This document shows, one piece after another, positions 5,111-21,171 of a stretch of 31,763 nucleotides of DNA. Source of the stretch: Patescibacteria group bacterium (GTDB lineage Bacteria; Patescibacteriota; Patescibacteriia; Magasanikbacterales; GWA2-37-8). Position numbers and translations under genes: made by a program. Numbering within the stretch: the stretch's first letter is position 1; each line of letters opens with the position of its first letter. The stretch covers positions 1-31,763 of the forward strand of contig SCQK01000015.1 in assembly GCA_004321885.1 (NCBI GenBank), read 5' to 3'. A model generated the notes under the pieces. It was not told where the DNA came from. It did not search any database and worked only from the letters and a program-made list of their open reading frames with translations.

Positions 5111-6104
5111 CTGCGTGCTGGCGGTTACGTACAACTGCAACGCGCGGTGCGTGATGTGCGATATTTGGAAAATCAAAAATTTTTCCGAGCTGGCGCCTGA
5201 GCAATTTTTGAAACTGCCCGCCAGCTTGCGCGATGTGAATATCTCCGGCGGCGAGCCGTTTTTGCGGCGCGACTTGCCCCAGATAATTCACAATGTAAAA
5301 AAAGCGTGCCCGGCCGCGCGGCTCGTGATTTCCACAAACGGCTTCGCGACTGGTTTGATTCTGGCGCAGATGCGAAAAATTTTTGAAATAAAACCCAATA
5401 TCGGCATTGCGATTTCCATAGACGGAATAGGGGAGAAGCACGACGAGATGCGCGGCATACGGGGCGGGTTTAATATGGCCATGAAAACCCTTGAAGGGCT
5501 AAAGAGAATGGGCATGAAAAATTTGCGGCTGGGTTTTACGGTGACAGAGAGAAATATCAACGAGTTGGGGCGCGTGTATAATTTGGCGCGCAAAGAAGGC
5601 GTGGAGTTCACCAACAGCTTTGCCCAGAGTTCGGATATTTATTTTGGGGGGAAACAGAATACGGATTTTAAGGATATGGATTCCGGCTCGGGGGCCGGAA
5701 TGACAAAAGAGGTCCTACGCGCGCAATACCGACATCTTATCAGGGCCGAGCTTTCCGGTTGGAATATAAAGCGCTGGGCGCGCGCCTACTACGCGCATGG
5801 GATGTACAATTTTATCACCGGCAAGCAGGCCGAGCTTTCCAGCGCGCCCGGGCGCGACTTTTTCTTTTTGGACCCGTCGGGCGAAATTTATCCCTCGGTG
5901 GTGCATAATTTTAGGATGGGGAATATTCGGGCGGTTCAGGGGTTTGAACAATTTTGGTGTTCAAGCGCCAGCGAGGGTGTGCGGGAAAAAATAGACGCGG
6001 CCAAACTGCCGGTTTGGATGATATGCACCGCGCGCACAGCCATAAAAAAGCACCCCTTCAAAGTGGGGTGGTGGGTTTTGAAAAATAAATTCAGCGTCCG
6101 GTAA
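5079..6104 (+). CDS. Radical SAM domain protein.
   Basis: A CxxxCxxC cluster (CNARCVMCDIW) lies near the N-terminus, and a 'NISGGEPFLRRDL' SAM/Gly-rich motif is present. The 5' end overlaps the glycosyltransferase gene, suggesting an operon. Confidence 0.7.
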   Translation: MKKFICRLPIDCVLAVTYNCNARCVMCDIWKIKNFSELAPEQFLKLPASLRDVNISGGEPFLRRDLPQIIHNVKKACPAARLVISTNGFATGLILAQMRKIFEIKPNIGIAISIDGIGEKHDEMRGIRGGFNMAMKTLEGLKRMGMKNLRLGFTVTERNINELGRVYNLARKEGVEFTNSFAQSSDIYFGGKQNTDFKDMDSGSGAGMTKEVLRAQYRHLIRAELSGWNIKRWARAYYAHGMYNFITGKQAELSSAPGRDFFFLDPSGEIYPSVVHNFRMGNIRAVQGFEQFWCSSASEGVREKIDAAKLPVWMICTARTAIKKHPFKVGWWVLKNKFSVR

Positions 6105-6987
6105 CAAGGCAAACCACAGGCCCGCCAAATTCCCAGCCCGCGGACAGCGCCTGGCGCAGACCCGCCACAGACAAAGCGCTGTTGGCCGAGATTTCAATTC
6201 CGGTCGTTTGCTTGAATAGCTTGATGGCCGACAATATCTCGGCATTCGTCGCTATCCATCCGGAGCCGTTGCTTTTTTTAATGGCGTTTACAACCGCTTC
6301 TTTGCGCCTGGCGATTCTATCCACAATCGCGCCGGCCAAACTAACCTCATCTTTTTTGGCGCTGTCTGGCAGGGGCAAACGTTTGGCCTCGGCCGCCGAG
6401 GCGATAGGGTGGCAGGTGGATGTTTGCACGATATGTATTTGCGGGCAAGCGCCGATTTTTTTGAAGCCTTCGTACAGTCCCTGGGCCGCGGCGCCGCTGG
6501 AAGTGGGCACAAAAATAGCGGACAGATTTTTGACCGCGCTTAATTCCTTGGCCAATTCAAAATAGCCGCTGAGCGCCGAGTCGTCGGTGGACTGGCGCAA
6601 GAGTTTGGCAGTGCCGGCCTTGTCGGCCTGGAAGGCGGACTGGCGCGGATTTTTTACCTGGCGCAGTTCAATATTTGGGCCGGCTAAATCCGTCAGTATT
6701 TTCATTTTCGCCCTATCTATTTTTTCTCCGATAAAGATTTTTAATTTTATCGGTTGCGAGTTGTGATTTTTAATGTGATAAGCCGCGGCCAGCGCCGCGT
6801 TGCCCGACGAAGAAATCACAAAATCCAACCAGCCTTCTTTGGCGTGTTTCTCTATCATCAACGGAATAGAGCGTCCCTTGTGCGAGCCATAGGGGTGCAA
6901 GTCTTCACGTTTCAAGTAAAGCTCTGTTGGCAGTCCCAAGGCCTCTGCCAACCGGCTTGCCTTGATTTGCGGAGTGGGTCTTGTCAC
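6091..6987 (-). CDS. PLP-dependent enzyme, fold type II (threonine synthase / threonine dehydratase / cysteine synthase superfamily).
   Basis: An 'LKREDLHPYGSHKGR' motif (S-x-K-x-R PLP-lysine motif) and a Gly-rich loop 'VPTSSGAAAQG' are present. The protein is 298 aa. Confidence 0.55.
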   Translation of the reverse strand: MTRPTPQIKASRLAEALGLPTELYLKREDLHPYGSHKGRSIPLMIEKHAKEGWLDFVISSSGNAALAAAYHIKNHNSQPIKLKIFIGEKIDRAKMKILTDLAGPNIELRQVKNPRQSAFQADKAGTAKLLRQSTDDSALSGYFELAKELSAVKNLSAIFVPTSSGAAAQGLYEGFKKIGACPQIHIVQTSTCHPIASAAEAKRLPLPDSAKKDEVSLAGAIVDRIARRKEAVVNAIKKSNGSGWIATNAEILSAIKLFKQTTGIEISANSALSVAGLRQALSAGWEFGGPVVCLVTGR

Positions 6988-7043: not shown

Positions 7044-7208
7044 ATGAAACTAATTTGTCCGGAGTGCAAAAACGACGTGGATTTGACGGCCTATCCCAAT
7101 ATGGCCGCGGGCAATGTCATAGAGTGCAATGTTTGCGGGATTACCCTCATGGTGAAAGACATGGACGGGGAAAATGTTATTGTTGAGGTGGTTGACGAGG
7201 GGAAATAA
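7044..7208 (+). CDS. Small LysW-like zinc-ribbon protein (54 aa). It is shorter than the 60-aa cut-off and so absent from the ORF track.
   Basis: The translation is MKLICPECKNDVDLTAYPNMAAGNVIECNVCGITLMVKDMDGENVIVEVVDEGK. The CPEC...(17)...ECNVCG spacing and the 'L-V-D' acidic C-terminal half resemble the LysW/ArgW amino-group carrier fold. The canonical EDWGE C-terminal tail is absent, as the protein ends in -DEGK. Confidence 0.4.
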   Translation: MKLICPECKNDVDLTAYPNMAAGNVIECNVCGITLMVKDMDGENVIVEVVDEGK

Positions 7209-8727
7209 GCCTGTCAATCATTCCCCTAAACCCACGCGAGCCCAAAAAGACGATGGTGTCTTCTTTTTGGGCTGTCTTTTTTAAATAAGCGACCAGTGCG
7301 TCGTCGTCCGGCATGAATTTCGCGTTGTTGTGCGTTTTGGAAATAATTTTGGCCAGTTTGGCGCCATTCATAAGCTCGTTGGTTGTCTCCCCCTTGATAA
7401 GGGGGAGATTCACTACCACACCAAAATTTTTGGTGTGGTAGTGAAGAGGGGGTAATTTTAATTTCGTAAGCGCGGGAACAATTACTTCGTTGGCATTGGC
7501 AAAAGCGTGAGCGTACGATGGGGCCGAGGCCGCGCTCCGGCCGCCGGTATTGGGTTCAAATACCGCGTAGATTTTTCCCTTATAAATTTGGCGCAAAGTG
7601 GCGAGGGTTGACTTGGCTTTGGCCGGCGAGTGGGCGATGTCGTCGTAGACATCGGCGCCGCTTGCTTGTCCGCGTTTTTCCAGCCGCCGCTTCAAGCCGT
7701 CAAAAGTTTTAATAGCTGAGAGAATTTTTTCCGGCGCGATGCCGATTGCCGAGGCCAGCGCGAACACCCCGCACAAATTTTGCGCCATAAATTCGCCGAG
7801 CATGGGCGAGGAAACTTTATAAATTTTTTTCCCGTGTCGCAGTTCAAATTTTATGCCGCTGCCGCTCTGGCTAATTTTACCGTATTGGTAGTCGCATCGT
7901 TCAGCTTTGCCATACGTTATTGTCATTGCGAGGCCGTTTGCGGCCGAAGCAATCCCATACGTATTATTAGTAGGAGATTGTTTCGCTGCGCTCGCAATGA
8001 CACTTAAAACCTTCTCATCATCAGCGCACGCCACTATTAGTCCATGTTTTGGTATGGAAGCGATCAAATTTTCAAACGCGTCAAAATAGCTTTCTGCGGT
8101 GGGATAAATATCAGCGTGGTCCCAGCTGATGGAAGCGAGGAGCAGGTGAGTGGGGGAGTAGTGGGAAAATTTTGGTCGCGCATCCCAGCGGGCTGATTTG
8201 TACTCGTCGCCTTCTATCACGCTCCACCCCTCTTTTTTTCCGCTGGCTCCATAGTCCCCCGCAGGGGGCTGTGGAGCCAAACTGCCCATACTCGCCGATT
8301 CAAACCCGCTTATCGCCAGACCGCCGAACATGTAACTCGGCGCGAAATTGGCTTGCGTCAAAATCCACGAGAGCAAAGCCGCGATTGTCGTCTTGCCGCA
8401 GGTGCCGGCGCAGACGATGGAGTTTTGTTTCACGAAATATTCAGCCAATACCTCGGGATATGATTTGTATCTCAATTTTTTTTCCTGCGCCGCCAGCCAT
8501 TCAGGGTTTTGCGAACCGGCCACATTACCCACCACCACTAAATCCGGAGAGTCCATGCGCTCCGGATGCCAGCCCGGGTAAAATGCCACACCCGCAGATT
8601 TCAACCTCGTGGAAACCGGCGGGAAAAAGCCAACGTCACTGCCAGTCACTTTCCATCCGGCTTTCTTAAAAGCAACAGCAATCCCGCTCATTCCCACCCC
8701 GCAAATTCCGATAAAGTGAACATGCAT
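7177..8727 (-). CDS. Mur ligase of the MurC/Mpl family (UDP-N-acetylmuramate:L-alanine ligase or murein peptide ligase). It carries an in-frame GC-rich palindromic insert.
   Basis: The N-terminus 'HFIGICGVGMSGIAVAFKKAGWKVTGSD...YPPVST' is MurC/Mpl-like, with the YPPxST pattern resembling Mpl. Mur ligase middle and C-terminal domains follow. Nucleotides 7386-7456 encode 'KLPPLHYHTKNFGVVVNLPLIKGE' from a palindromic element. Confidence 0.8.
   Translation of the reverse strand: MHVHFIGICGVGMSGIAVAFKKAGWKVTGSDVGFFPPVSTRLKSAGVAFYPGWHPERMDSPDLVVVGNVAGSQNPEWLAAQEKKLRYKSYPEVLAEYFVKQNSIVCAGTCGKTTIAALLSWILTQANFAPSYMFGGLAISGFESASMGSLAPQPPAGDYGASGKKEGWSVIEGDEYKSARWDARPKFSHYSPTHLLLASISWDHADIYPTAESYFDAFENLIASIPKHGLIVACADDEKVLSVIASAAKQSPTNNTYGIASAANGLAMTITYGKAERCDYQYGKISQSGSGIKFELRHGKKIYKVSSPMLGEFMAQNLCGVFALASAIGIAPEKILSAIKTFDGLKRRLEKRGQASGADVYDDIAHSPAKAKSTLATLRQIYKGKIYAVFEPNTGGRSAASAPSYAHAFANANEVIVPALTKLKLPPLHYHTKNFGVVVNLPLIKGETTNELMNGAKLAKIISKTHNNAKFMPDDDALVAYLKKTAQKEDTIVFLGSRGFRGMIDRLISPRQPPQQ
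7920..8000. repeat. A 12-bp perfect inverted repeat 'tgtcattgcgag / ctcgcaatgaca' with a 57-nt spacer inside the Mur-ligase gene. The 'gtcattgcga(g)' half-site recurs at about 13332 and 28598.
   Basis: The arms are at 7920-7931 and 7989-8000, and the spacer contains the small hairpin ggccgtttgcggcc. The same 10-11-mer is seen in the intergenic region at 13332-13343 and at the annotated start of the 28597 ORF. Confidence 0.5.
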
Positions 8728-8745: not shown

Positions 8746-9498
8746 CTATTGTTTTAGTATCTTCTTTAGCTCCTCCAAATTCCTCTTCCACTCCTTCCCG
8801 TCAAACCATTCCAGTCCATTAAACTGTAATTTATAGACATCGGCCGGGCGCTGGGCCGAGCCGATATACACGTATTTTTTTCCCTCCACCTTCGCGTGCA
8901 AAATCGCTTTTTGCATCATGCCCAGGCCCAGGTCTTTTTGTTTGGATTCAAGGTCGTAAAAAGGATAGCTGTAATGCAAGATATTTTTTGTTTCAAAACA
9001 AATGCAGTAGCCCAATACCCCCTCCCCCGTCCTCCCCCTAAGAGGGAGAGGACTACCAGCGGTATTTCCTTCCCCTTTTAGGGGAGGGGCAGGCCACCAC
9101 ACCAAAGATTTTGGTGTGGTGGCAGGGGGTGGGGTATAAATCAATAACAAATTAAAGTTGCTTTTTGCCGGGTCAGTCAGCATCTCTTTTATTTTTTGTG
9201 CGGAGAAAATTTTCGGTCCAAATTTTTTTTCGTAAAAATCCTTGCCCATCTTGTGCACGCGCCAGTCATAATCAGAGTAGGGGAGAGGGGCCGCGTCCAG
9301 TTCAAAATTTTTCGTATGGCTCAAAATGCGCCGGTTCTCGCTGTTTAGAATAAATTTGCCCAAATCAATGCGCACACTGCGCGTTTGATTCATATCGCCT
9401 TTGCCCGTGCGCGTAAAAACAAAACCCTCACTGTAAAGTTTTTCTACATTTTCATCCGCGAAATCAGAAATTGTTTTCTTGTTCCAAGATAGATACAT
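8746..9498 (-). CDS. ATE/Bpt-family (arginyl-/leucyl-tRNA-protein transferase-like, ATE_C domain) aminoacyl transferase. It carries a large in-frame palindromic-element insert.
   Basis: An 'GFVFTRTGKG...MNQTRSVRIDLGKF' segment resembles the ATE 'GWRRSG...QT..IR...F' region. The C-terminus 'YSYPFYDLESKQKDLGLGMMQKAILHAKVEGKKYVYIGSAQ' matches the ATE_C pattern Y-x-FYD-[PL]...SLG...I..AK..G..Y.Y[IL]G. Nucleotides 9010-9135 encode a Pro/Gly-rich 'TPPPATTPKSLVWWPAPPLKGEGNTAGSPLPLRGRTGEG' stretch. Confidence 0.55.
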   Translation of the reverse strand: MYLSWNKKTISDFADENVEKLYSEGFVFTRTGKGDMNQTRSVRIDLGKFILNSENRRILSHTKNFELDAAPLPYSDYDWRVHKMGKDFYEKKFGPKIFSAQKIKEMLTDPAKSNFNLLLIYTPPPATTPKSLVWWPAPPLKGEGNTAGSPLPLRGRTGEGVLGYCICFETKNILHYSYPFYDLESKQKDLGLGMMQKAILHAKVEGKKYVYIGSAQRPADVYKLQFNGLEWFDGKEWKRNLEELKKILKQ

Positions 9499-9534: not shown

Positions 9535-10656
9535 TTAGTTCATTGATATCCAGACAGCCAAAATGACCATAAACGCGTGCATCAGCCAAAAGCGCATCAC
9601 GATTTTTTCCTCGCTCCAGCCCTTGAATTCAAAATGGTGATGAACCGGCGCCATCTTGAACAGCCGCCGTCCCAGCAAGCGCCTAAAACACACCTGCAAA
9701 ATTACCGATACAATTTCCACGTAAAAAATAAATCCAAGCAGGGGAATGAGCAGGGTGCGGTTTATGGCAATGCCGTTTATGGCCACCAGGGCCCCCAGCC
9801 CCAGCGCGCCCACGTCGCCCATCTGAAAACGCGCCGGTTTTACGTTGAAATAAGTATAAGCAATCAAAGCGCCGGCCACCGTGCCGTTTAGGAGTGTAAA
9901 CGATTCGCGTCCGGCTGTCCAGCTCATTACCATCAGGCCCAAAAAGGTGATAATCATGGCGCCGCCGGCCAGACCGTCCAGCCCGTCGGCGATGTTGACC
10001 GCGTTGGCCGTAAACATCACCGCAAAAATCACCAGCGGAATAATCCACCAGCCGATTGGTATCTGCCCCAGCACCGGGGTCCAGATGGAATGCCAGTGCT
10101 CGCCCAGCTTGTAATAAATCCACCAGGCCGGAATGGCGCCGGCTACAAATTGAAAGAGTAGTTTTTCGTGCACCTGGATGCCGCGCCCCGGATGCGAGCC
10201 AAAGGCGGAAACAGCGCGTTTGTAAAAAGCCCAAGGCAAACTTAAAACATACCAAACCCGCGTCCGCCAAAATTTGTGCACCCGTATCAAAGTAAGCGTC
10301 TGTTTCAAAGTGCGCTCCCGCCGTGGCTTGCCGAAAATATTCAGCAAATCATCGGCCGCGCCCAGAAGCGCCGACACGGCCATGGCGCCGATGGGCACAT
10401 AGGTGCTTTCGCGGTTCCAATTCCAAATCAGCGTGATAATCGTAACCGTGGCTATCACCAGCAGTCCGCCCATTATCGGCGTGCCGGCTTTGCATCCGCG
10501 GTCGCCTTTCATTGTAAAATCAAATTCAGCGCGGCGCGTTATTTTATACTTGTACAAAAATTTCGTCAGCAAAGGCGCCCAAATAAACGCGCCCAGCGCC
10601 GAGAATATTAAGTAAAGCAAGGCTGTTTGTATTAAGTCTGGTGAAAACATATTCAC
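9535..10656 (-). CDS. mraY: Phospho-N-acetylmuramoyl-pentapeptide transferase MraY.
   Basis: An 'NAVNIADGLDGLAGG' motif and the 'APVHHHFEFKGWSEEKIV' motif are present, and the protein is a multi-TM. The start as listed is GTG at 10654-10656; an ATG lies 2 codons downstream (10648-10650). Confidence 0.9.
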   Translation of the reverse strand: MNMFSPDLIQTALLYLIFSALGAFIWAPLLTKFLYKYKITRRAEFDFTMKGDRGCKAGTPIMGGLLVIATVTIITLIWNWNRESTYVPIGAMAVSALLGAADDLLNIFGKPRRERTLKQTLTLIRVHKFWRTRVWYVLSLPWAFYKRAVSAFGSHPGRGIQVHEKLLFQFVAGAIPAWWIYYKLGEHWHSIWTPVLGQIPIGWWIIPLVIFAVMFTANAVNIADGLDGLAGGAMIITFLGLMVMSWTAGRESFTLLNGTVAGALIAYTYFNVKPARFQMGDVGALGLGALVAINGIAINRTLLIPLLGFIFYVEIVSVILQVCFRRLLGRRLFKMAPVHHHFEFKGWSEEKIVMRFWLMHAFMVILAVWISMN

Positions 10657-10660
10657 AGTT

Positions 10661-10723
10661 TGTCATGCTGAACTTGTCACCACACCAAAATTTTTTGGTG
10701 GTGGTGACAAGTTCAGGATGACA
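10661..10723. repeat. About 63-nt near-perfect palindrome (extended A-type element) filling the spacer between the NlpC/P60-like stop and the mraY start.
   Basis: The sequence is tgtcatgctgaacttgtcaccacaccaaaa | ttttttggtggtggtgacaagttcaggatgaca. The arms are complementary except for 1-2 positions. The core 'caccacaccaaa-tttggtg(g)tggtg' is shared with 4 intragenic copies. Confidence 0.8.
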
Positions 10724-10724
10724 G

Positions 10725-11564
10725 TTAAAATTTTAGCCGTCTGATTTCCAAAGTTTTCGCTTGCTTGGCTTCCAAAAACGTTTCGTTGGCTTCGCCCGTT
10801 TTGCCCAACTCAACCCACTCCTGCCCCAGCAATCCGGCTTTTGGATTCACGAGCCGGATAAATCCTTCGCTCACCCCGTGCCCGTATTTACCCTCACAGC
10901 CCCAGGCGCGGGCGCAGCCGTATCTAATAAACCCGCCGTCCGTTTCGGTAATAATCAAAATATGGTTGCGGTCGCGCCGCTGACCGGTGCGCAACATCAC
11001 AATCACGTCTCCGGCGCGCGCGTTTTCCAGCTTCACTTTTTCCGTATTCTCGTCGCTCGCGTAGGTACTCACGGAAATATTTTCCATTGGCCGCAATTTG
11101 GCGACAAGCCAGCGCCAAAAACGCGCCGGCGAAACCACGCGCAATCGCTTCAGCAAATTCACGTTTTTCGTTTCCAAAAAATGTTGCGCCAGCACGCGCG
11201 TGACAAAGCCCGAACAGTCCACGCCCAGCCCGTTATCAATCAAAAATTTGCGGATATCGCGCGCGACCTCTTCGCCGGCGCCGTGCTGCTCACCACCGCC
11301 GCCAGGCGGGGCCCCGCTCTGGCGGTGGTGCAAACAACAGCCCTCGTGGTCAAAGAGCTGTTTGTGGTATTGCAAAGAAATAATCTGCGCCTCTTCCGCG
11401 ATATCGCGCGGCGAACCCTTGCCAACAAGCACAGACAGCTGGCCGCGCCGGCCCCGGCGCGCGTTGTTAAAATACGGACAGCGCACATTGCCCGCGCCGC
11501 GAAAAGGCAGAGACAAATAATCATTTATGGTTCTTAGCGCCGACGGCGATAGGGTGTTTGGCAT
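10725..11564 (-). CDS. NlpC/P60-family (papain-like) putative cell-wall hydrolase or amidase with an in-frame GC-rich insert.
   Basis: A 'GVDCSGFV' catalytic-Cys motif is present, and a downstream 'GDVIVM....RNHILII' segment matches the NlpC/P60 'GDLVFF...HVGIY' pattern. Nucleotides 11291-11330 (a C-type palindrome) encode 'GAPPGGGGEQHGAG'. Confidence 0.5.
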   Translation of the reverse strand: MPNTLSPSALRTINDYLSLPFRGAGNVRCPYFNNARRGRRGQLSVLVGKGSPRDIAEEAQIISLQYHKQLFDHEGCCLHHRQSGAPPGGGGEQHGAGEEVARDIRKFLIDNGLGVDCSGFVTRVLAQHFLETKNVNLLKRLRVVSPARFWRWLVAKLRPMENISVSTYASDENTEKVKLENARAGDVIVMLRTGQRRDRNHILIITETDGGFIRYGCARAWGCEGKYGHGVSEGFIRLVNPKAGLLGQEWVELGKTGEANETFLEAKQAKTLEIRRLKF

Positions 11565-11580
11565 AATGTCATTCCCCCGA

Positions 11581-13338
11581 CTAAGTACGGGGGAATCCAG
11601 TACTTATTCGTTTAATCAATTTCGCCTTCAAAGTTTCCGGCAATAGATGAGTCTGCCCCAGTTTCTCCACTTCCACCCATTCCAATTGGTAGGAATTATT
11701 CGGATTATTGCGCGCCTGCTCGGGCCCGCCCAAAAATTCTTTGCCGGAAATATTTTTACCGAAAAAATAATGCTCTCGGCGCGGCGAGGCAATGGCGATA
11801 ATTTTTTTGCTTTCGTCAATTTCAAAATCCAAATTCGTCTCCTCTTTGGTTTCGCGCATGGCCGTGACGCGAAAATTTTCATTCGGCTCCACGGTGCCGC
11901 CGGGCATGGCAAAGTATTCATTGCCGTACTTGTTGCGCTTCATCAGCAAAATTTTGTCGTCTTTAATTAAAATCACGCCGGCGCGCGGCCGGTTCCAAAT
12001 CATATTTTTATGCGCTGAAATAATACCCACTAAAATAGACATCCCGACCTCGTTGAAAATGTTGTGTTTTTCCATCAACCCGCTCTCGCTTTGCACGCGA
12101 ATCAGGTCCGTGCCTAGTTTTACATTCTGGTACATTATGATATTAAAACTTTGCACGGCCTTGATTCTGGGTATTTCCAGTTCGTCTATGTTCAAAGTGA
12201 CCCTCTGCACGATTTGCGCGCCGTTTGTGATGGCCTGCAGGCGGTAGTCGTCCGGCGGCACGTCCAAAAGCGCGGCTACGTGCGCCTGAAAAGTGGTGGC
12301 GGCCGGCCGCGGCTTCATCAGTCCGCCCAGCCGTTTTTTGGGCGCGGCCTTGGCCATGGCCAACTCCTGCAACTGGGATTCAAAACTGGCCGAGGCCGGC
12401 TGGCGCGCGTTTACTTCCACCAGATACACTTGTCCGCCGGCTTCGTCTATCACCGCGTCTATGCCATAAAGCCCCTTCCATCCCTGGCTGGCCAGCCGTT
12501 CGCCTACTTCAATGGCTATTTTTTTGTACTGGGCCGCCTGTTCTTCGGTCAAAATTTTGCGCGGCATAGACCAGTCGTTGCCGATAGTGGCAAAGGGCAT
12601 GTCGGTAAAAGGCTTCAGGCCAGTGATTTGATAGCTGATGTTGCCGACAAACACCCTGTTTCCCCAGACCACGTTGTTGTTGGTAAAAAGCGGCCCCTTG
12701 ATGTACTCGGTTACGCGCACGTCGCGCCGCGGAAATTTTTCCCGTATCTCCTGCAGTTGTTTTTTGGATTCCACTAAAATTGTGCCCAGGCCCGTGTGCG
12801 AGCGGTTGAACTGCACGATAAACGGCTTGCCTTTCCACACCAGGTTGGCGCACAAGTCTATGCGGTGGGAAGGCAAGTGCGATGCCAATGGCCCCAGCCA
12901 ACGCACCTGGGAAATTTTTTCCTCCACTTCGTTGCAAAATTTGGCGCTCGGGTTGAGCAGGGCCCAGCCGTGGTCCGCGCAGAGCTCTTCTATATATATA
13001 TTGTTCTTAAACACCAAAACAAAGTCGCCTTTTTTGAGCAGAGACAAAGTTTTTTTGCGCGTCAGCAGTTCGCGCGTATCCAGCGGCCGCGGGTTGTCTA
13101 TCAAGATGATATTTTTGAAGCGCTTGGCCAGCTTGGACGAGTAGGAATTTTTGTTGGTGATGATATATATGCCGGGCTGGTGAAAATCCAGACCCTCGGC
13201 GCGCTCCACATCGCGGCAAACATAAAACAAACGCCGGCCAACGAGCTTGTTCGCGACTTCTTTGATAATATTTGATAACGGCATAGATTTAGTATATACT
13301 ACCTCAAAATTACCTGTGGCGCAATATCTGTTAGTCAT
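11581..13338 (-). CDS. Fusion protein with an N-terminal ATP-grasp ligase domain and a C-terminal NUDIX hydrolase domain.
   Basis: The ATP-grasp signature 'GLYGIDAVIDEAGGQVYLVEVNARQPASAS' (E-x-N) is present. The Nudix box 'PGGTVEPNENFRVTAMRETKEETNL' (GX5EX7REUXEEXGU) is in the last about 150 aa. A single uninterrupted 585-aa ORF encodes both domains. Confidence 0.7.
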   Translation of the reverse strand: MTNRYCATGNFEVVYTKSMPLSNIIKEVANKLVGRRLFYVCRDVERAEGLDFHQPGIYIITNKNSYSSKLAKRFKNIILIDNPRPLDTRELLTRKKTLSLLKKGDFVLVFKNNIYIEELCADHGWALLNPSAKFCNEVEEKISQVRWLGPLASHLPSHRIDLCANLVWKGKPFIVQFNRSHTGLGTILVESKKQLQEIREKFPRRDVRVTEYIKGPLFTNNNVVWGNRVFVGNISYQITGLKPFTDMPFATIGNDWSMPRKILTEEQAAQYKKIAIEVGERLASQGWKGLYGIDAVIDEAGGQVYLVEVNARQPASASFESQLQELAMAKAAPKKRLGGLMKPRPAATTFQAHVAALLDVPPDDYRLQAITNGAQIVQRVTLNIDELEIPRIKAVQSFNIIMYQNVKLGTDLIRVQSESGLMEKHNIFNEVGMSILVGIISAHKNMIWNRPRAGVILIKDDKILLMKRNKYGNEYFAMPGGTVEPNENFRVTAMRETKEETNLDFEIDESKKIIAIASPRREHYFFGKNISGKEFLGGPEQARNNPNNSYQLEWVEVEKLGQTHLLPETLKAKLIKRISTGFPRT

Positions 13339-13423: not shown

Positions 13424-14023
13424 ATGAAAAACGAAATAAAAGAAATAGAAAAAGACTTAGAATTTGTAAAAAATATTTATATAAAACTTCTAACGATATT
13501 GCCCAGTTTTAATATTACTGATAGCAAAATTTTGCCTTATGGCTTAAAAGCGCACACTAGATCGGTAAGTTGGTTAGTTGAGCAAGTTATTACACAGCAA
13601 ACTAAATTCAATGCAAAGAAACTTGATTTAGATGAAGTTAATTTTGACTTCCCAGATACCTCACTACATGATTGCGAAATTATTTATAAAGGGAGAAGTT
13701 ATTTTATAAATGTTAAAATTCACAATATTGGAAGCAAAGAAAATAAAAATGATATTTCTGCGGTAGAAAAACTTTATTTTCAATACAGTGTTAATAAAAA
13801 TTATACCTTAATATATGCTTGCTTTGGCATTAAATTTGAAAATATAAAAATAAATTTTGTTAAAGATTATTTAGAAGTTTTCTCGCCACAGTTTCTACCA
13901 ATTTATGTGAATCCTCGAAATGACAAAATTCAAGCCACCTATAGACATGATAAAGTATACAGAACGCGAGATGAATTTCTAAAAATGTTAAAAGAAAAAT
14001 CAAAAAGTATTATTTTAAAATAG
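13424..14023 (+). CDS. Putative type II restriction endonuclease, the R subunit of an AT-rich R-M islet.
   Basis: The 199-aa ORF has extremely low GC (about 20%). It lies 2 nt upstream of, and is co-oriented with, a beta-class DNA methyltransferase. No recognisable family motif was found, which is typical for REases. The assignment is by context. Confidence 0.45.
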   Translation: MKNEIKEIEKDLEFVKNIYIKLLTILPSFNITDSKILPYGLKAHTRSVSWLVEQVITQQTKFNAKKLDLDEVNFDFPDTSLHDCEIIYKGRSYFINVKIHNIGSKENKNDISAVEKLYFQYSVNKNYTLIYACFGIKFENIKINFVKDYLEVFSPQFLPIYVNPRNDKIQATYRHDKVYRTRDEFLKMLKEKSKSIILK

Positions 14024-14025
14024 CT

Positions 14026-14847
14026 ATGAATAAAATTTTTAACGAAGATATTTTATTAGGAATAGATAAAATAGAAGACAATTCTATTGATTTAATTTTA
14101 ACTGATCCTCCTTATTGTTTAGGCAAAGATTATGGCAATGATTCTGATCAAAAATCATCTGAGGATTATCTGAACTGGACATATCAATGGATTGATGCGG
14201 TTTTGCCTAAATTAAAAAATAGTGGAAGTTTTTATATTTTTTTAAGCTGGCAATATTCACCAGAAATTTTTTGTTATTTAAAAAAGAAATTACGAATGGT
14301 CAATGAAATTATTTGGGATAGACGAGTGCCAAGCATGGGCGGTTCTACTAGAAAATTTTCATCTGTCCACGACAATATAGGTTTTTTTGTAAAAAATAAT
14401 AATTATTATTTTGATTTAGATAGCATTAGAATTCCCTACGATGAAGAAACTAAAAAAGCAAGAACTCGATCAATTTTTGTTGGAAAAAAATGGTTAGAAA
14501 TGGGCTACAATCCAAAAGATTTATGGAGTACACCAAGAATACACACACAAGACCCTGAAAGAGAAAATCACCCAACCCAAAAACCTTTAGAAATAATTGA
14601 ACGAATGGTAAAAGCAAGTTGTCCTAAAAACGGAATTGTTTTTGATCCATTCATGGGAACCGGAACAACTGCTATCGCTTGCCTATCAAGCAATAGGCAA
14701 TATGTAGGATTTGAAATAAATAAAGATTATCACAAACTAATAACAAATCGAATCAAGAAACATAATAGTTGCCCGACTTTATTTCAACAACAGAAGCAAA
14801 AACAAGGTAATTTGACTCAAGGCATTCACCTATGCACGATAAATTGA
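14026..14847 (+). CDS. DNA methyltransferase, beta-class amino-MTase (N4-cytosine or N6-adenine), type II R-M system M subunit.
   Basis: An N-terminal 'DLILTDPPYCLG' (motif IV, DPPY) precedes a C-terminal 'HPTQKPLEIIERMV...VFDPFMGTGTTAIA' (motif I/SAM binding), giving the circularly permuted beta-class order. The composition is AT-rich. Confidence 0.85.
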   Translation: MNKIFNEDILLGIDKIEDNSIDLILTDPPYCLGKDYGNDSDQKSSEDYLNWTYQWIDAVLPKLKNSGSFYIFLSWQYSPEIFCYLKKKLRMVNEIIWDRRVPSMGGSTRKFSSVHDNIGFFVKNNNYYFDLDSIRIPYDEETKKARTRSIFVGKKWLEMGYNPKDLWSTPRIHTQDPERENHPTQKPLEIIERMVKASCPKNGIVFDPFMGTGTTAIACLSSNRQYVGFEINKDYHKLITNRIKKHNSCPTLFQQQKQKQGNLTQGIHLCTIN

Positions 14848-15758
14848 AACAATTCGGCCGCGTGAAAATCAACGAGCCGCTGGCCAAACATAATACATTT
14901 AGAATCGGCGGCCGGGCCAAGTTTCTTGTCATTGTGGATGACACGAACAAGCTCGTCGGCCTGCTTAATTTTTTGTCCGGGGCCGGAGAAAAATATTTTA
15001 TCGTGGGAGGCGGGTCCAATCTGCTGTTTTCCGACGATGAATTTGACGGGGTTATAATAAAAGTGCAAACATCCAAAATAGCGATAAAGGAAACCATGAT
15101 AGAAGCCGAGGCCGGGGTTTTGCTGTCCTTAGCCGTGAACATGGCCGCGCAAAACAGATTGGCTGGTCTGGAGTGGGGAGTGGGCATACCGGGCACTGTG
15201 GGCGGAGCCGTGCGCGGCAATGCCGGCGCCATGGGCGAGGATATGTCGTGCGTGCTTGACAGCGCGGATGTCTGGAGCGACGGTGAAATTTTGACCTTGA
15301 AAAAAAAAGAGTGCGGCTTTGGCTATCGCGACAGCGCGTTCAAAGCCGGCGGCGTGGTTTTACGCGCGCGTTTGGCTTTGCGCCGCGGCGACAAACAAGA
15401 AATCGCGGCCAAAATGGCGAAAAACGCGGCCCAGCGCGCCAGCCGCATCTCGCGCTTTGCCTCGGCCGGCAGTTTTTTCAAGAACATCAAGACCGAATTG
15501 TGGAAGCACGAAAAAACCGAAATGGATGAAATTTTTCATAAGCGCGGCAAGGTGCCGGCCGGCTGGCTGATAGAACAGGCCGGCTGTGCCAGGCTGGTTA
15601 GGGGCGGGGCGCGCGTTTCCGACGAGCACGCCAACATTATCGTGAATACCGGCGAGGCGACCGCCAAAGATGTTTTGGATTTAGTTGCTGAAATAAAAGA
15701 GAGCGTGTATAATAAATTTGGGGTGGAGTTGGAGGAAGAGGTGGAGATAGTGAGATAA
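14832..15758 (+). CDS. murB: UDP-N-acetylenolpyruvoylglucosamine reductase MurB.
   Basis: Motifs 'NTFRIGGRAKF', 'IVGGGSNLL' and the C-terminal 'SDEHANIIVNTGEATAKDVLDL' are characteristic MurB motifs. The start overlaps the methyltransferase stop by 16 nt. Confidence 0.85.
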   Translation: MHDKLKQFGRVKINEPLAKHNTFRIGGRAKFLVIVDDTNKLVGLLNFLSGAGEKYFIVGGGSNLLFSDDEFDGVIIKVQTSKIAIKETMIEAEAGVLLSLAVNMAAQNRLAGLEWGVGIPGTVGGAVRGNAGAMGEDMSCVLDSADVWSDGEILTLKKKECGFGYRDSAFKAGGVVLRARLALRRGDKQEIAAKMAKNAAQRASRISRFASAGSFFKNIKTELWKHEKTEMDEIFHKRGKVPAGWLIEQAGCARLVRGGARVSDEHANIIVNTGEATAKDVLDLVAEIKESVYNKFGVELEEEVEIVR

Positions 15759-16231: not shown

Positions 16232-18573
16232 AAGAGCAGGCAATAAAATTGATTAGGCGTTTTTGGCCGGCTGGCTATGGCTTGGTCGGCTCTTTTATTA
16301 TTTCCGCCGGCTGGAACTGGTATCACACCGCCCATCGTCCCCACTGGCGCATTATTCTCATCACGCTCGGCGTTTGGGTGGTTGTTTACGCAGGTTTTCG
16401 CGGATTCAAATGGCTTTATGCGTACTTTACGCGGCGCTTCCGCAGGCACGAGTTTTGGCAAAAGAATTTTTACGTTGTTTTAGACCAGCTTTATTTTATT
16501 TTCTCGCTTATTTTTTTGGTTTTTTTCTCGCGCGACGAAATCGTCTCGGCCCTCTACGCGCCCGTGATTTTTTTAATCTTTTATTGGCGCCTTGACCGGT
16601 ACCTCAAAAAGCACCCCGATGGCGGAATGTGGCGCCGCGTCGCGCGCGCGTTTTTTTTGTTCGGCTTTTTTATTTTTCTATTGATGGATGTTTTGCAATA
16701 TTTTGCTTTTCGTTTGTATATACTGGACCCAAACGCCAAAATTTTTAACATTGTTTTTTTCCGCGCTTGGGCCATGGCCATATTTTGGCTGGCTACATTT
16801 GCCGTCTGCGCCATCTGGTATCGCTTCACGCGCAAATGGCATCGCTACGCGCCACTCGGTTTTTGGGCGCTTTGCTTTGTCGTCTATGCCGCGCTGTGGG
16901 CGCTAAATGTAGGCGTGCTCTACTACTCGGGCTTGTACTTAAATCCGGCGCTTTTGGAACACGCCGAGGGCGGCGCCGGCGCCGGTTATCTTTCCACCGG
17001 CGTCAGCTATTTACTTTTCGCGTTATTGGCAGTAATGCTGGGTCTTTTCACTGTGCTATTTAAAAAAATCATGAAAGCGCACGGAAATTCGGCTACGCGC
17101 CACTGGAATTATTACCATTTCGCCCTCATTGCTTTGGCGCTGTTTACTTTTTTGGCCGTGGCCAGCTTCAAAACCACTCCCGAATATCTTATCATCCGTT
17201 CTTTTTATAAATACTTCCGCGGCGAAACCGAAAAAATAGAATTGAACCAGGCGGTCAAGACAAAATTAGAGCGATTTGGTCTGAAATACAACACGGACCA
17301 GTTCTACGTCGCGCACAAGGATACGGTTTATCGCTCAAATCCTCCACTCCTCGCCCCAAAATTCTCTACCAAAAAACCCAACCTCGTCATCGTTTTCCTG
17401 GAGTCCTTTTCCAGTCGCCTCACCGGCGTTTATAATCCCAAATACAAAGAGCTTACCCCGGGCCTCAACAAAATGGCCGCGGACAAAAATACCACTGTTT
17501 TCAAAAACTACTACAATGCCAGCACTCCGTCCATCACTGGCATTATTTCTTTGCTTTGCTCGTACCTCACGCCATTCGGCCACAATGAAATTCAAAACGA
17601 AAACCGCTTGCAAAGAACTGGCCTGATGTGCCTGCCGCGCGCCCTGAAAAAAAACGGCTACAAGGATTTTTTGTATATGACCGCGGTGAGCGAGGAATTC
17701 GCCAACAAGGGCTCCATTGCCAAAAGCATGGGCATAGAAAAAATGCTGGGCCAGGAAGAGCTGAAAAAATACATCAAAGCTCCGCCCCTGGCCTGGGGCT
17801 ACAGCGACCACCAGATGTTTCCGTTGTTTTTTGATTTGATGCCAAAACAGCGCGAACCGTTTTTGATGATGCTGGCCACAGTGGACACGCACCCGCCGTT
17901 TACCACGGCCAAGGATATTTTGAAATATAAAAGCGGGGGCAGCAACATGCTCAACACTTTTCACACCACCGACGACGGCTTCTCCAAATTTTGGGACCAG
18001 TTCAAGGCCAGCCCGTATTACGAGAATACAATTTTGATTGCCGTGGCCGACCACGCGGTTTTTCCGGTGGCCTACGACAAAAAGGGTTTTCCCGACGAGT
18101 ATGGCAAGCGCACTTTTTACGACGAAAATTTGTTCCTGCTCTACGCGCCTGAAAATGTTCTGCCCAAAGAGGTCAAGACGCTTTCGTCGGGGATTGATTT
18201 CACGCCAACGATTTTGCAAATGCTTGGGATAAACAAGGTGCCAAACGCGTTTGAAGGACATTCTATTTTTGACGACCGCGCCAAATTTCCAAACATCCTC
18301 GGCATGCACGAGTTCGGGCTGTATATAAACCAGGCGATTTCTCAAAATCCTACCCCTATTAGGGGGAGGGCGGGCCACCACACCAAAGAATTTGGTGTGG
18401 TGGCAGGGGAGGGGGTTGAACGTCGCACCGACTACGCGGTCCCATCGCATCTGGAATGCGCCGACGCCGAGGTCGGCGCTTCATCCAGCACCCCGCTCAC
18501 CCTTTGCGAATTTTTGCATTTCTACAAATGGAAACGCCAGATGATGGAAGAGGGCCGGTTTTGGGAGAAGTAA
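16228..18573 (+). CDS. LtaS/MdoB-like sulfatase-domain (alkaline-phosphatase superfamily) membrane protein. The N-terminal multi-TM is followed by an extracytoplasmic phosphotransferase domain, with an in-frame GC-rich insert near the C-terminus.
   Basis: About 300 aa of hydrophobic helices precede 'PNLVIVFLESFSS...NASTPSITGIISLLCSY...ATVDTHPPF', which is sulfatase/LtaS-like. Nucleotides 18353-18480 (B and A palindromes plus the gcgccgacgccgaggtcggcgc hairpin) encode 'PTPIRGRAGHHTKEFGVVAGEGVERRTDYAVPSHLECADAEVGASS'. Confidence 0.6.
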   Translation: MKEQAIKLIRRFWPAGYGLVGSFIISAGWNWYHTAHRPHWRIILITLGVWVVVYAGFRGFKWLYAYFTRRFRRHEFWQKNFYVVLDQLYFIFSLIFLVFFSRDEIVSALYAPVIFLIFYWRLDRYLKKHPDGGMWRRVARAFFLFGFFIFLLMDVLQYFAFRLYILDPNAKIFNIVFFRAWAMAIFWLATFAVCAIWYRFTRKWHRYAPLGFWALCFVVYAALWALNVGVLYYSGLYLNPALLEHAEGGAGAGYLSTGVSYLLFALLAVMLGLFTVLFKKIMKAHGNSATRHWNYYHFALIALALFTFLAVASFKTTPEYLIIRSFYKYFRGETEKIELNQAVKTKLERFGLKYNTDQFYVAHKDTVYRSNPPLLAPKFSTKKPNLVIVFLESFSSRLTGVYNPKYKELTPGLNKMAADKNTTVFKNYYNASTPSITGIISLLCSYLTPFGHNEIQNENRLQRTGLMCLPRALKKNGYKDFLYMTAVSEEFANKGSIAKSMGIEKMLGQEELKKYIKAPPLAWGYSDHQMFPLFFDLMPKQREPFLMMLATVDTHPPFTTAKDILKYKSGGSNMLNTFHTTDDGFSKFWDQFKASPYYENTILIAVADHAVFPVAYDKKGFPDEYGKRTFYDENLFLLYAPENVLPKEVKTLSSGIDFTPTILQMLGINKVPNAFEGHSIFDDRAKFPNILGMHEFGLYINQAISQNPTPIRGRAGHHTKEFGVVAGEGVERRTDYAVPSHLECADAEVGASSSTPLTLCEFLHFYKWKRQMMEEGRFWEK

Positions 18574-18579
18574 ATTTTT

Positions 18580-20211
18580 ATGAATCAAGAGCGGGCCCTG
18601 CAAATTTTAAAAACCGGCGCCAATGTTTTTCTGACCGGCGAACCCGGGTCGGGTAAAACGCACACGGTAAACGCTTATGCGCGTTATCTGCGCCAGAGGG
18701 GGATCGCGCCGGCGATTACCGCGTCCACCGGCATAGCCGCCACGCATATCGGCGGTTTTACGATACACTCGTGGAGCGGCATAGGCGTAGCGCCTCGGCT
18801 GGACAGATATTTGCTTGATAAAATTTCCACAAACGAGAGGGTGGTAAAGCGCGCGGGCGCGGCCAAAGTGCTGGTGATAGATGAAGTTTCAATGCTCGGC
18901 CCGGAAACTTTGTCCATGGTTGACGCGGTTTTGCGGGAAATCAAAAGATGCCGCGAGCCGTTTGGCGGCTTGCAAATAATTTTAGTGGGTGATTTTTTTC
19001 AATTGCCGCCGGTGGAAAAAAACCTTCCGGAAATTCAGAATAGTTTACTCCAAGATAGGCCGGCGCGATTCGCCTTTGATTCGCCGGGCTGGAAAAATCT
19101 GCGGCCAATGGTTTGCTATCTCACGGAACAGCATCGGCAGGACGATCCGCAATTTTTGGGTTTGCTTTCCGCCATCCGTGGAAATCGCTTTAGCGACAAT
19201 CATCTATCTTTGATAAACAGCCGTAAAACCGAATCCGCCCAAGCGCCCGATCGCGTTCCCAAACTTTTTTCCCATAACATTGACGTTGGCCGCGTAAACG
19301 ATGAAACATTGTCCAAGCTTCCCGGGCCGGAAAAAACTTTTTTTATGTCATCGCGCGGAAACCCGCGATTGGTTGAATTTTTAATAAAGGGTTGCCTATC
19401 GCCTGAAAAACTTTGTTTAAAAAAGGGCGCGGCCGTGATGTTCACGAAAAATAATCAGGCCGAAGGGTATGTCAACGGCACGCTGGGAGTGGTACAAAAT
19501 TTCAGCGAGTCAGGCGCTCCGATTATAAAAACGCGCGGCGGGCGGTTTATTGATGTGACAGCGGCCGAGTGGGCGCTGGAAGACAACGGACGCGTGCTGG
19601 CGACGATTGAACAATTGCCCCTACGTTTGGCCTGGGCCATTACCGTGCACAAAAGTCAGGGTATGAGTTTGGATGAAGCGACCATGGATTTGAGCCGTGT
19701 TTTTGAATATGGACAGGGATACGTGGCTCTGTCGCGCGTGCGGCGGCTCTCGGGCGTGCATTTGCTGGGCTGGAACGAACGCGCTTTCGCCGTGCACCCG
19801 GAGGTTTTGGAAAAAGATCAGGAGTTTAGAACTTCGTCGTTGGCATCGGAAGAGGCGTTCGCGAAATTGCCGGACGAGGAACTAAAAAAAATGAGCGATA
19901 ATTTTGTCGTGGCCTGCGGAGGCCAGGTCGGTGGCGTCGTGTCCCCCTCCTTTATAAGGAGGGGGCAGGGGGAGGTATTGCAGGGGTCATCGCGGTCGGG
20001 CGGCTTTGATAAAATCCGTCAAGATCACCCAAACGCCTATCGCCCGTGGGAGCCGGAGCAAGACGAAGAATTAAAAAAACTTTTCGCGCGAAAAACATCA
20101 ATCAAGGATATATCAAAAAAACTTGGCCGCAAAAAAGGCGGCATCACTTCGCGCCTGGTGCGTCTGGGCGTTGTTGAAAGCCGCGAGCAAGCCAGGGCAC
20201 AGCGCGGTTAA
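18580..20211 (+). CDS. SF1B PIF1/RecD-like ATP-dependent DNA helicase with a C-terminal HTH-like tail.
   Basis: Walker A 'TGEPGSGKTH', Walker B 'VLVIDEVSMLG' and 'ILVGDFFQLPPV' are present. The C-terminal portion is UvrD_C-like, and the last about 60 aa are 'KKLFARKTSIKDISKKLGRKKGGITSRLVRLGV'. Nucleotides 19943-19965 (B-type palindrome) are in frame, encoding 'VVSPSFIRRGQGE'. Confidence 0.75.
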   Translation: MNQERALQILKTGANVFLTGEPGSGKTHTVNAYARYLRQRGIAPAITASTGIAATHIGGFTIHSWSGIGVAPRLDRYLLDKISTNERVVKRAGAAKVLVIDEVSMLGPETLSMVDAVLREIKRCREPFGGLQIILVGDFFQLPPVEKNLPEIQNSLLQDRPARFAFDSPGWKNLRPMVCYLTEQHRQDDPQFLGLLSAIRGNRFSDNHLSLINSRKTESAQAPDRVPKLFSHNIDVGRVNDETLSKLPGPEKTFFMSSRGNPRLVEFLIKGCLSPEKLCLKKGAAVMFTKNNQAEGYVNGTLGVVQNFSESGAPIIKTRGGRFIDVTAAEWALEDNGRVLATIEQLPLRLAWAITVHKSQGMSLDEATMDLSRVFEYGQGYVALSRVRRLSGVHLLGWNERAFAVHPEVLEKDQEFRTSSLASEEAFAKLPDEELKKMSDNFVVACGGQVGGVVSPSFIRRGQGEVLQGSSRSGGFDKIRQDHPNAYRPWEPEQDEELKKLFARKTSIKDISKKLGRKKGGITSRLVRLGVVESREQARAQRG

Positions 20212-20337: not shown

Positions 20338-21171
20338 TTGTCGGGTATGTCAAAAATTTTGGAAAATATTAAGCAGCGACCATATTTTTCGAAGAACAAT
20401 TTTGTCCTGTACAGGGACAACTGTTTAAATATTCTGGGAAAATTACCAGAGAATTCGGTTGACATGATTTTTGCAGATCCTCCTTATTTGCTTTCGAACG
20501 GCGGAATGACGTGCAATGGGGGGAAAATGGTAAGCGTTGATAAAGGGCAGTGGGATGTGAGTAACGGTTTAAAAAAGGACTGGGAATTTCATTTGAGCTG
20601 GATTAAAGCGTGTCATCGAGTATTAAAGCCATGCGGAACAATTTGGATAAGTGGGACCTATCACTCCATTTATCAATGCGGATTCGCTTTGCAGGTCAAC
20701 AAATTTCATATTTTGAATGATATTGCCTGGTTCAAACCGAATGCGTCTCCAAATTTGAGTTGTCGATTTTTTACTGCTAGCCACGAAACGATTATTTGGG
20801 CTCGGAAAGATAAAAAAGGAAAACACAAATTTAATTATGAGCTAATGAAAAACAGAGACTGGACGGGTGATTTTATAAAAAAACCGAATCTTCAAATGCG
20901 AAGTGTTTGGGCTATTTATCCTCCCAAAAAAGAAGAAAAGATTTTTGGTAAGCACCCCACTCAAAAACCGATAGATTTATTGGTTAGGATTATCCTCGCA
21001 AGCACAGATAAGGGCGACATTGTTTTGGACCCATTTACCGGCTCTTCAACTTCAGGGCTGGCGGCATTTTTGAATGAAAGAAAATTCGTTGGTATTGATT
21101 TGGAAAAAAAATATCTAGATATATCCATTAAACGTTTCAGCAGTTTTAAAAAAGAAGCCCCTCATTTATGA
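20338..21171 (+). CDS. Orphan beta-class DNA amino-methyltransferase (N6-adenine or N4-cytosine).
   Basis: An 'DMIFADPPYLL' (DPPY) motif is N-terminal, and 'HPTQKPIDLLVRIILAST..GDIVLDPFTGSSTSG' is C-terminal. The islet is low-GC (about one-third). No intact REase ORF is adjacent. Confidence 0.85.
   Translation: MSGMSKILENIKQRPYFSKNNFVLYRDNCLNILGKLPENSVDMIFADPPYLLSNGGMTCNGGKMVSVDKGQWDVSNGLKKDWEFHLSWIKACHRVLKPCGTIWISGTYHSIYQCGFALQVNKFHILNDIAWFKPNASPNLSCRFFTASHETIIWARKDKKGKHKFNYELMKNRDWTGDFIKKPNLQMRSVWAIYPPKKEEKIFGKHPTQKPIDLLVRIILASTDKGDIVLDPFTGSSTSGLAAFLNERKFVGIDLEKKYLDISIKRFSSFKKEAPHL

Follow-up and report, generated by a model that had tools for sequence, protein, structure and literature searches.

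A compact Bpt/ATE1-like putative aminoacyl-tRNA transferase encoded among peptidoglycan precursor genes in Patescibacteria

We analysed a stretch of 31,763 nucleotides, here called the window, from contig SCQK01000015.1 of a Patescibacteria group bacterium (Magasanikbacterales; assembly GCA_004321885.1). It contains a gene that we call BptL, which encodes a protein 250 amino acids long identical to NCBI protein EPN28_04640 and related to the aminoacyl-tRNA transferases Bpt of bacteria and ATE1 of eukaryotes. BptL comes fourth in a cluster of genes that all run on the minus strand and is located between an MraY-like gene and a gene for a MurC/Mpl-type ligase. The features of this region are given below. 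Related loci are the 80 best species-level loci of the 331 GTDB species genomes that contain a relative of BptL.

14832 to 15758, plus strand: MurB (267 bits against an NCBIfam equivalog cutoff of 259), found in 38 of the 80 related loci
11581 to 13338, minus strand: ATP-grasp and NUDIX fusion by profile matches, first gene of the cluster, found in 49 of the 80
10725 to 11564, minus strand: NlpC/P60-like protein, a weak match with a GVDCSGF Cys motif, found in 52 of the 80
9535 to 10656, minus strand: MraY-like phospho-MurNAc-pentapeptide transferase (GT4), directly upstream of BptL (TIGR00445, 186.7 bits against a cutoff of 192)
8746 to 9498, minus strand: BptL, a Bpt/ATE-like (ATE_C-type) putative aminoacyl-tRNA transferase of 250 amino acids, assigned from family, structure, and conserved residues
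9015 to 9137, no strand assigned: palindromic repeat element of 123 nucleotides within BptL, in frame, equal to 41 codons (residues 121 to 161) in a β-hairpin loop
7177 to 8727, minus strand: MurC/Mpl-type Mur ligase with three Mur ligase domains, directly downstream of BptL
7044 to 7208, plus strand: LysW-like Zn-ribbon small protein of 54 amino acids, on the opposite strand between the Mur ligase gene and the next gene
6091 to 6987, minus strand: pyridoxal phosphate-dependent enzyme (PALP; threonine synthase/dehydratase-like), last gene of the cluster, found in 66 of the 80

The Mur ligase scored 248 bits with the murC model and 246 bits with the mpl model, each under its cutoff. Without the palindromic element BptL is 209 amino acids long, and we refer to the numbering of this shorter form as insertion-free.

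A preliminary description of this DNA had called BptL an ATE/Bpt-type protein. This was right at the superfamily level, where ATE/Bpt fit far better than FemAB by Pfam, hhalign, and fold. The only Pfam family matched by BptL alone was ATE_C (PF04377), at 17.3 bits (E = 0.007; gathering score 25), rising to 18.8 bits when the insertion was removed. ATE_C matched all 32 relatives tested (best E = 6.4e-9), FemAB (PF02388) matched none of them, and Acetyltransf_6 matched 11; one distant relative from Patescibacteria reached 39.3 bits with ATE_C, over the gathering score. Six NCBIfam 'arginyltransferase' (Bpt) models matched BptL with E-values from 3.6e-8 to 9e-4, and these matches span residues 37 to 200, equal to positions 71 to 241 of 247 in the model. 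Across BptL and its relatives six or seven of these models matched, with E-values down to 1e-17. The curated Bpt equivalog level was not reached, the best score being 32.9 bits against a cutoff of 267, and 63.7 against 170 for second-tier relatives.

We then compared a profile of the whole BptL family (A3; 37 sequences from three clades, Patescibacteria, Verrucomicrobiota, and Bacteroidota) with three canonical Bpt proteins, from Sinorhizobium meliloti pSymB (annotated 'arginyltransferase'), Shinella, and Pseudorhodobacter. Using hhalign, residues 29 to 198 aligned to Bpt 59 to 246 with a probability of 98.4% (E = 6e-15), whereas the probability for one FemAB-family protein was 4.3%. Neither profile nor fold placed BptL with the Leu/Phe-tRNA-protein transferase (Aat). 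BptL, which lacks a zinc finger, is thus distantly related to bacterial Bpt and to eukaryotic ATE1.

The family is labelled in databases as 'hypothetical', as 'GNAT family N-acetyltransferase', or by transfer as 'arginyltransferase'. The best 80 of the 331 GTDB species genomes are mostly Magasanikbacteria, and some are labelled Taylorbacteria, Paceibacterota, or Parcubacteria. Among 1.84 billion cluster representatives searched, only 495 matched at E ≤ 1e-3 and 85 at E ≤ 1e-30, and a word-indexed search returned 1,446 close homologs of approximately 215 amino acids with approximately 60-65% identity (maximum 73%). A second tier of the family has approximately 13 extra N-terminal residues; its members come from genomes that carry the label Dojkabacteria or Nomurabacteria and from bacteria outside the candidate phyla radiation (CPR). 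The Verrucomicrobiota clade is very abundant and tightly conserved, with 2,824 proteins of 267 amino acids that are 76-80% identical. One family member, P0263 (809 amino acids), appears when read by eye to have a C-terminal module resembling phosphoenolpyruvate-utilising enzymes and pyruvate-phosphate dikinase.

The AlphaFold2 model of BptL minus its insertion had a mean predicted local distance difference test score (pLDDT) of 94.2 and a predicted template modelling (TM) score of 0.90, and consists of a single GNAT domain with a small N-domain. Human ATE1 was the top match in Foldseek; the yeast and K. lactis ATE1 structures gave TM scores of 0.65-0.70, and FemX was lower at approximately 0.48. 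Human ATE1 also ranked first in a further fold comparison, with a value of 16.0 (202 of the 209 residues aligned), followed by K. lactis Ate1 (14.0), the C-terminal domains of MprF (11-14), FemX (11.1 and 9.2), FemA (8.3), and the L/F-transferase (7.8); ordinary GNATs scored 9 or less. In these fold comparisons the aminoacyl-tRNA transferases ATE1, MprF C-domain, FemX, and Sbb17 all ranked above every acyl-CoA GNAT.

A basic α3 helix and a catalytic lysine are common to all aminoacyl-tRNA transferases and are not shared with other GNATs; this lysine is K304 in K. lactis Ate1 (klAte1), where it follows Y303, and K305 in FemX, where it follows F304 (PMC9351520). In BptL, the residues invariant over the three clades are R43, S53-E54-N55, R57, Y170, G172, Y181-K182, and W196 (insertion-free numbering). 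The Y181-K182 pair, which is Tyr222-Lys223 of the full-length protein (codons 8835 to 8830), is the same in all 37 sequences of the profile and aligned by hhalign with Y229-K230 of Bpt. The segment SENRR(I/V)L(K/R/S)(K/H) at residues 53 to 61 is a helix in the model and aligned with RSMRRVL of Bpt. BptL also has in common with Bpt (PRK01305) and ATE1 the VRI...F...RR(V/I)L segment that contains this helix, the HY/SxVYxF(Y/F)D strand, the LG loop, and the YxYLG motif, as well as the catalytic YK and, presumably, the use of aminoacyl-tRNA.

BptL departs from Bpt and ATE1 in being approximately 40-50 residues shorter, in falling under the curated cutoffs, and in two features of the N-terminal region. 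The zinc-binding cysteines of klAte1 are C23, C26, C95, and C96 (PMC9351520), and the Bpt sequences that we fetched show CPYL...CETCRAC. There are no cysteines among the first 120 residues of BptL, which indicates that the Cys4 zinc finger of ATE_N has been lost. ATE_N (PF04376) itself gave nothing at E ≤ 10, either with or without the insertion. The second feature is the 'RR' of the GFRRS motif, which has no counterpart in BptL; the corresponding stretch is GFVFT in its own clade and GFLPx in the other clades. Arg80 of klAte1 is required for acidic N-terminal acceptors (PMC9351520), and from spacing we infer that it is located in this G(F/W)RRS motif. The stretch with GFVFT was left unaligned by hhalign, and the nearby R30, which is invariant in the closest clade only, paired with the R of 'YRP' in Bpt. 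An equivalence proposed earlier between the G-F-x-F-T-R-T-G segment of BptL and the ATE motif 'GWRRSG' could not be established, since the confident hhalign region begins just past it and ATE_N is unmatched. From these sequence comparisons we conclude that the predicted catalytic and tRNA-binding apparatus is likely to have been kept and the acceptor site altered.

The donor pocket of klAte1 is formed by S255, S273, E277, and Y289, and that of Bpt by A168, A185, Q189, and L201 (PMC9351520). Spacing on the hhalign alignment suggests that the equivalent positions in BptL are Y/C135-136, M153, A157, and V/I169. On this mapping the pocket would be small and uncharged and the donor therefore not Arg.

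The association of BptL with mur genes holds far beyond the window and is echoed by a linkage to alanine racemase (alr) in Verrucomicrobiota. Of the 80 related loci, 77 have MraY upstream and 77 have a MurC-type ligase downstream; on either side, the three exceptions end at or near a contig end. The gene order of Magasanikbacteria also occurs in loci L100, L101, L107, L111, and L134. In Dojkabacteria-type clusters (L081, L082, L106) the order is MurE, BptL, MurC-type ligase, and the MurE of L082 passes the cutoff for the meso-diaminopimelate (mDAP)-type equivalog. Near BptL in both L081 and L082 are MurB, MurA, MraZ/MraW, a FemAB-family gene, and a DegT aminotransferase, and L082 also has a MurF-like ligase. 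On other Patescibacteria-type contigs BptL is followed by MurC (L086, L092) or preceded by MurE (L088-L091). A homolog in Paraburkholderia lies after genes for a Peptidase_M15 protein and a methyltransferase. The one canonical bpt gene that we examined, on S. meliloti pSymB, adjoins hemB, an RDD protein, and a DMT transporter and has no cell-wall neighbours, in contrast to the location of BptL in mur or alr operons.

In Verrucomicrobiota-type loci no mur genes were found within 5 kb of the BptL homolog. An alanine racemase gene is directly upstream and on the same strand in approximately 47 of 61 of these loci (L094-L166, L167, L168), and it is bona fide (TIGR00492, 353 bits; cutoff 168). A PurD-like ATP-grasp gene (TIGR00877, 116 bits; cutoff 288) often precedes it, giving an apparent uncharacterised ATP-grasp/Alr/Bpt-like operon.

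There are thus three independent cell-wall or alanine linkages over two phyla, making a chance association very unlikely. The shortened form of BptL, its loss of Cys4 and RR, and its location in mur or alr operons also suggest that the acceptor is probably not an acidic protein N-terminus.

We propose that BptL is a tRNA-dependent transferase that works in peptidoglycan precursor synthesis, a reading to which we give a probability of about 0.6. In this proposal, BptL would be a compact GNAT of the ATE1/Bpt branch that uses aminoacyl-tRNA, no longer has either the Cys4 zinc finger or the RR motif for the acceptor, and was recruited into the making of peptidoglycan precursors. The 3' end of aminoacyl-tRNA would be bound by the basic SENRR helix, a tetrahedral intermediate may be stabilised by the invariant Y222-K223 as by K304 of ATE1 and K305 of FemX, and the aminoacyl group would be moved onto a free amine of a Mur-pathway intermediate. 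The preliminary description had suggested that a family other than Fem carries out aminoacyl-tRNA-dependent modification of peptidoglycan precursors here. The family assignment and the synteny with mur genes held; the biochemical role, including acceptor, donor, and catalytic use of tRNA, is what we infer from them. This role rests on strong comparative-genomic evidence and would put known chemistry and a known fold family to use in a new cellular role.

Uridine diphosphate-N-acetylmuramic acid (UDP-MurNAc) lacks a free amine, as do its mono- and dipeptide forms; a nucleophile first arises when MurE adds the diamino acid, whose side chain carries an amine. This position-3 amine is the sole free amine in UDP-MurNAc-tripeptide and -pentapeptide and in lipid I and II, which makes branching like that by Fem/MurM the most likely reaction, and the adjacency of MurE in several lineages is consistent with it. 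We regard this specific model, branching of the stem peptide at position 3, as close to an even bet but short of one. UDP-MurNAc itself was considered as the target of aminoacylation and rejected because an amine nucleophile is missing. The predicted small, uncharged pocket and the linkage to alr and murC point weakly to a small donor such as Ala-tRNA.

The proposed reaction, tRNA-dependent aminoacylation of an amine on a peptidoglycan precursor, and the logic of the catalytic lysine are the same as for the FemABX proteins FemX, FemA, FemB, MurM, and MurN (PF02388). BptL is also linked to peptidoglycan precursor synthesis by its gene context, through adjacent MraY, MurC-type ligase, MurE, or alanine racemase. 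BptL belongs to a different family, as the Pfam and hhalign results above show. In Fem proteins GNAT domains occur in tandem, and FemA also has an inserted coiled coil; these proteins are much longer (335-400 amino acids, against 209 for insertion-free BptL). BptL has one GNAT domain and a small N-domain, and some of the Patescibacteria clusters that encode it also contain a true FemAB-family gene.

Several observations weigh against our proposal. BptL itself scores under the gathering score of ATE_C, and a hidden Markov model (HMM) search of PDB sequences with the family profiles did not find ATE1, returning only ordinary GNAT acetyltransferases at marginal E-values. A conserved G-x-G in the loop following β4 is reminiscent of the classical acyl-CoA-binding motif of GNATs. 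The Dojkabacteria-type clusters carry a FemAB-family protein beside the same genes, and a Fem-like role of BptL may therefore be redundant there. The MurE of L082 is of the mDAP type, and mDAP-type peptidoglycan is usually directly cross-linked and branchless. The alanine racemase partner in Verrucomicrobiota is not a specific pointer to position 3, and the family members on two Bacteroidota-like contigs, so judged by their neighbours, have no cell-wall context.

Some of these observations would fit other activities. BptL could make a building block from aminoacyl-tRNA and the α-amine of a free amino acid, a dipeptide, or a carrier-bound intermediate, examples being D-Ala, D-Glu-X, or a compound built with the ATP-grasp, PALP, NlpC/P60, and LysW-like proteins encoded nearby. 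The product would then be joined to UDP-MurNAc by the MurC/Mpl-type ligase. ATE/Bpt enzymes do act on the α-amines of N-terminal residues (PMC9351520), and the downstream ligase in the window scores as well with the model of the peptide-ligating Mpl (246 bits) as with that of MurC (248 bits). This ligase, not MurE, is the invariant partner in most Patescibacteria; the alanine racemase of Verrucomicrobiota acts on a free amino acid and often has an ATP-grasp ligase upstream; and the cluster includes a conserved LysW-like carrier-type protein, an ATP-grasp protein, and an NlpC/P60-like protein that has no obvious signal peptide by eye. However, the downstream ligase of L082 favours the MurC model (263 bits) over that of Mpl (216 bits), and that locus has a bona fide MurE and a MurF-like ligase, as in the standard stepwise pathway. 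The LysW-like gene is missing from Dojkabacteria-type and Verrucomicrobiota-type loci, and no precedent was found in the literature searched. We consider this activity unlikely.

Two simpler explanations appear still less probable to us, and about equally so. One is that BptL is the Bpt of Patescibacteria, an N-degron leucyl- or arginyl-transferase acting on N-terminal Asp or Glu, and that its mur neighbourhood is an accident of operon structure. Canonical Bpt is its closest sequence family, and relatives are annotated 'arginyl-tRNA--protein-N-Asp/Glu arginylyltransferase' or 'leucyl-tRNA--protein transferase'. Its scores are nevertheless far under all Bpt equivalog cutoffs (32.9 against 267 bits), the Cys4 zinc finger is missing, the 'RR' of GFRRS is missing or cannot be aligned, and the three independent linkages in two phyla have no equivalent around the canonical bpt on pSymB. 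The other is that BptL works independently of tRNA, either as an acyl-CoA-dependent GNAT N-acyltransferase on a cell-wall precursor or as a non-catalytic partner of the Mur ligase. This would agree with the resemblance of the G-x-G past β4 to GNAT motif A, with the classical acetyltransferases returned at marginal E-values from PDB sequences, and with the Acetyltransf_6 matches in 11 of 32 relatives. Yet the fold is nearer to the aminoacyl-tRNA transferases (ATE1, MprF C-domain, FemX, Sbb17) than to any acyl-CoA GNAT, the basic helix and catalytic lysine specific to these transferases are invariant, and the 60-65% identity within the closest clade argues for an active enzyme.

If BptL is a tRNA-dependent transferase of the Mur pathway, there would be an undescribed modification of the stem peptide in Patescibacteria and Verrucomicrobiota, and with it an unknown feature of peptidoglycan in largely uncultivated organisms. 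The transferases of the N-degron pathway (Bpt/ATE1) and those of the cell wall could then have a direct common origin. To our knowledge, the Fem/MurM family is the only one with known tRNA-dependent steps in building the cell wall, and these steps set cross-bridge structure and β-lactam resistance. In full-text searches of the literature we found neither the BptL family nor a Bpt/ATE-like enzyme of peptidoglycan synthesis described. We tentatively suggest, at somewhat less than even odds, that ATE/Bpt-type transferases are a second tRNA-dependent family of peptidoglycan-building enzymes, distinct from FemABX, which belongs to the near-universal core of the Mur pathway in much of Patescibacteria and has an alr-tied sister clade in Verrucomicrobiota. 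The reach of such a family would be considerable, with the closest clade in at least 331 GTDB species and the sister clade in abundant soil Verrucomicrobiota. BptL is amenable to assay: it is small and confidently predicted, has insertion-free orthologs, and UDP-MurNAc-peptides and aminoacyl-tRNAs are standard reagents.

The palindromic insertion noted in the preliminary description is real, with a length of 123 nucleotides, in frame, and strongly structured. Its outer arms are ATACCCCCTCCCC and GGGGGTGGGGTAT, with hairpins inside, and it folded far better than shuffled sequences on each strand (z = -5.8 and -7.8). It is built of modules that recur in the window, hairpin B (GCCACCACACCAAA...TTTGGTGTGGTGGC) and hairpin A (CTCCCCCT...AGGGGGAG). 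The closest homolog, P0002 (73% identity), does not have the insertion. In a model of the full-length protein the fold was unaltered, and residues 132 to 157 were disordered (pLDDT < 50) between two β-hairpin strands. The same loop, just past the invariant Tyr121, contains 9-44 extra residues in 21 of approximately 103 close homologs, where they are unrelated repeat-derived peptides. The loop past Tyr121 is thus a recurrent insertion hot spot. Such loop insertions are found in P0004, P0023, P0065, P0070, P0073, P0076, P0081, P0093, P0113-P0117, and others, and the inserted peptides differ from one another and resemble translated palindromic repeats, for example LPTVILNEVKNPL...RDPSVAELPQDD and CHCEEV...ARNDN.

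A G/C-rich, modular family of such palindromic repeats is spread across the contig (hairpin A, CTCCCCCTnnnnAGGGGGAG; hairpin B, GCCACCACACCAAAnnnTTTGGTGTGGTGGC). Related copies are located within open reading frames (ORFs) at 7383-7456, 18345-18418, 19946-19980, 21382-21404, 23140-23206, and 23640-23700, and between genes at 1743-1960 and 10661-10723. The five other host ORFs encode the Mur ligase (copy 7383-7456), an LtaS-like sulfatase-domain protein, a PIF1-type helicase, a transketolase, which has two copies, and a P-type ATPase. A search for hairpin B in 166 related loci and in IMG/VR gave no match. Across the whole window nothing in Rfam reached a gathering score, and permissive scans gave only chance hairpins (whalefall-1, 20 bits, E = 0.64 window-wide; microRNA models). 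The insertion was rejected as a known RNA family or intron. The 123-nucleotide palindrome is a selfish passenger repeat in a disordered surface loop and not part of the function of the enzyme. Palindromic elements of Rickettsia (Ogata et al. 2000, Science) are reportedly short repeats dispersed in a reduced genome and placed in frame in protein genes at surface loops. The insertion in BptL is like them in being palindromic, dispersed, and in frame at a surface loop with the ORF intact. It differs in its unrelated sequence, in its phylum, in the modular hairpins A and B, and in being known here from DNA alone. Literature searches returned nothing relevant on in-frame palindromes in CPR genes or on LysW-like carriers.

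The LysW-like protein contains CPEC...ECxxCG and ends in VVDEGK, and its matches to Pfam Zn_ribbon_LysW (E = 5.9e-6) and NCBIfam carrier_LysW (5.4e-6) are below cutoff. Its gene is kept in place in 68 of the 80 related loci, among which the (V/I)(V/I)DEGK end of the protein hardly varies. Along with the genes for the ATP-grasp/NUDIX and NlpC/P60-like proteins, it could be the mark of a pathway in the style of amino-group carrier proteins that is tied to cell-wall synthesis. Searches of PDB sequences with the ATP-grasp/NUDIX, PALP, and NlpC-like neighbours gave generic matches or none. There are no tRNA genes in the window, and a dedicated tRNA is therefore not encoded nearby. A scan for promoters and terminators found nothing exceeding the expectation from shuffled sequence.

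Duplicated precursor genes were observed in two of the Dojkabacteria-type clusters. L082, which is labelled Nomurabacteria, has two MraY-like GT4 genes, at 1029-2120 and 14613-15641. One encodes a protein of 363 amino acids (TIGR00445, 180 bits) and adjoins an ATP-grasp and an NlpC-like gene; the other encodes 342 amino acids (125.6 bits) and adjoins MurA and MraZ. Contig L081, from Dojkabacteria, has two MurB genes side by side. These duplicates are possible parallel precursor pathways.

In related loci MurB adjoins the cluster and is encoded on the other strand; in the window it is separated from the cluster by restriction-modification-like genes at 13424-14847. These and further such genes at 20338-21171 include two N6_N4 DNA methylases and a weak match to a UpaP162-type restriction enzyme, and are located in low-GC stretches (0.33-0.41, against approximately 0.5 for most of the contig). 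They break the neighbourhood of MurB and the cluster seen in related genomes and were thus probably inserted recently. At the GC-rich (0.64) 5' end of the contig, positions 2-240 of the window hold an 89-nucleotide direct repeat (75% identity, spacing 150 nucleotides). It overlaps an ORF at 74-1600 that has a weak match to the Cys-rich repeat Dicty_CTDC, and is a repetitive coding region.

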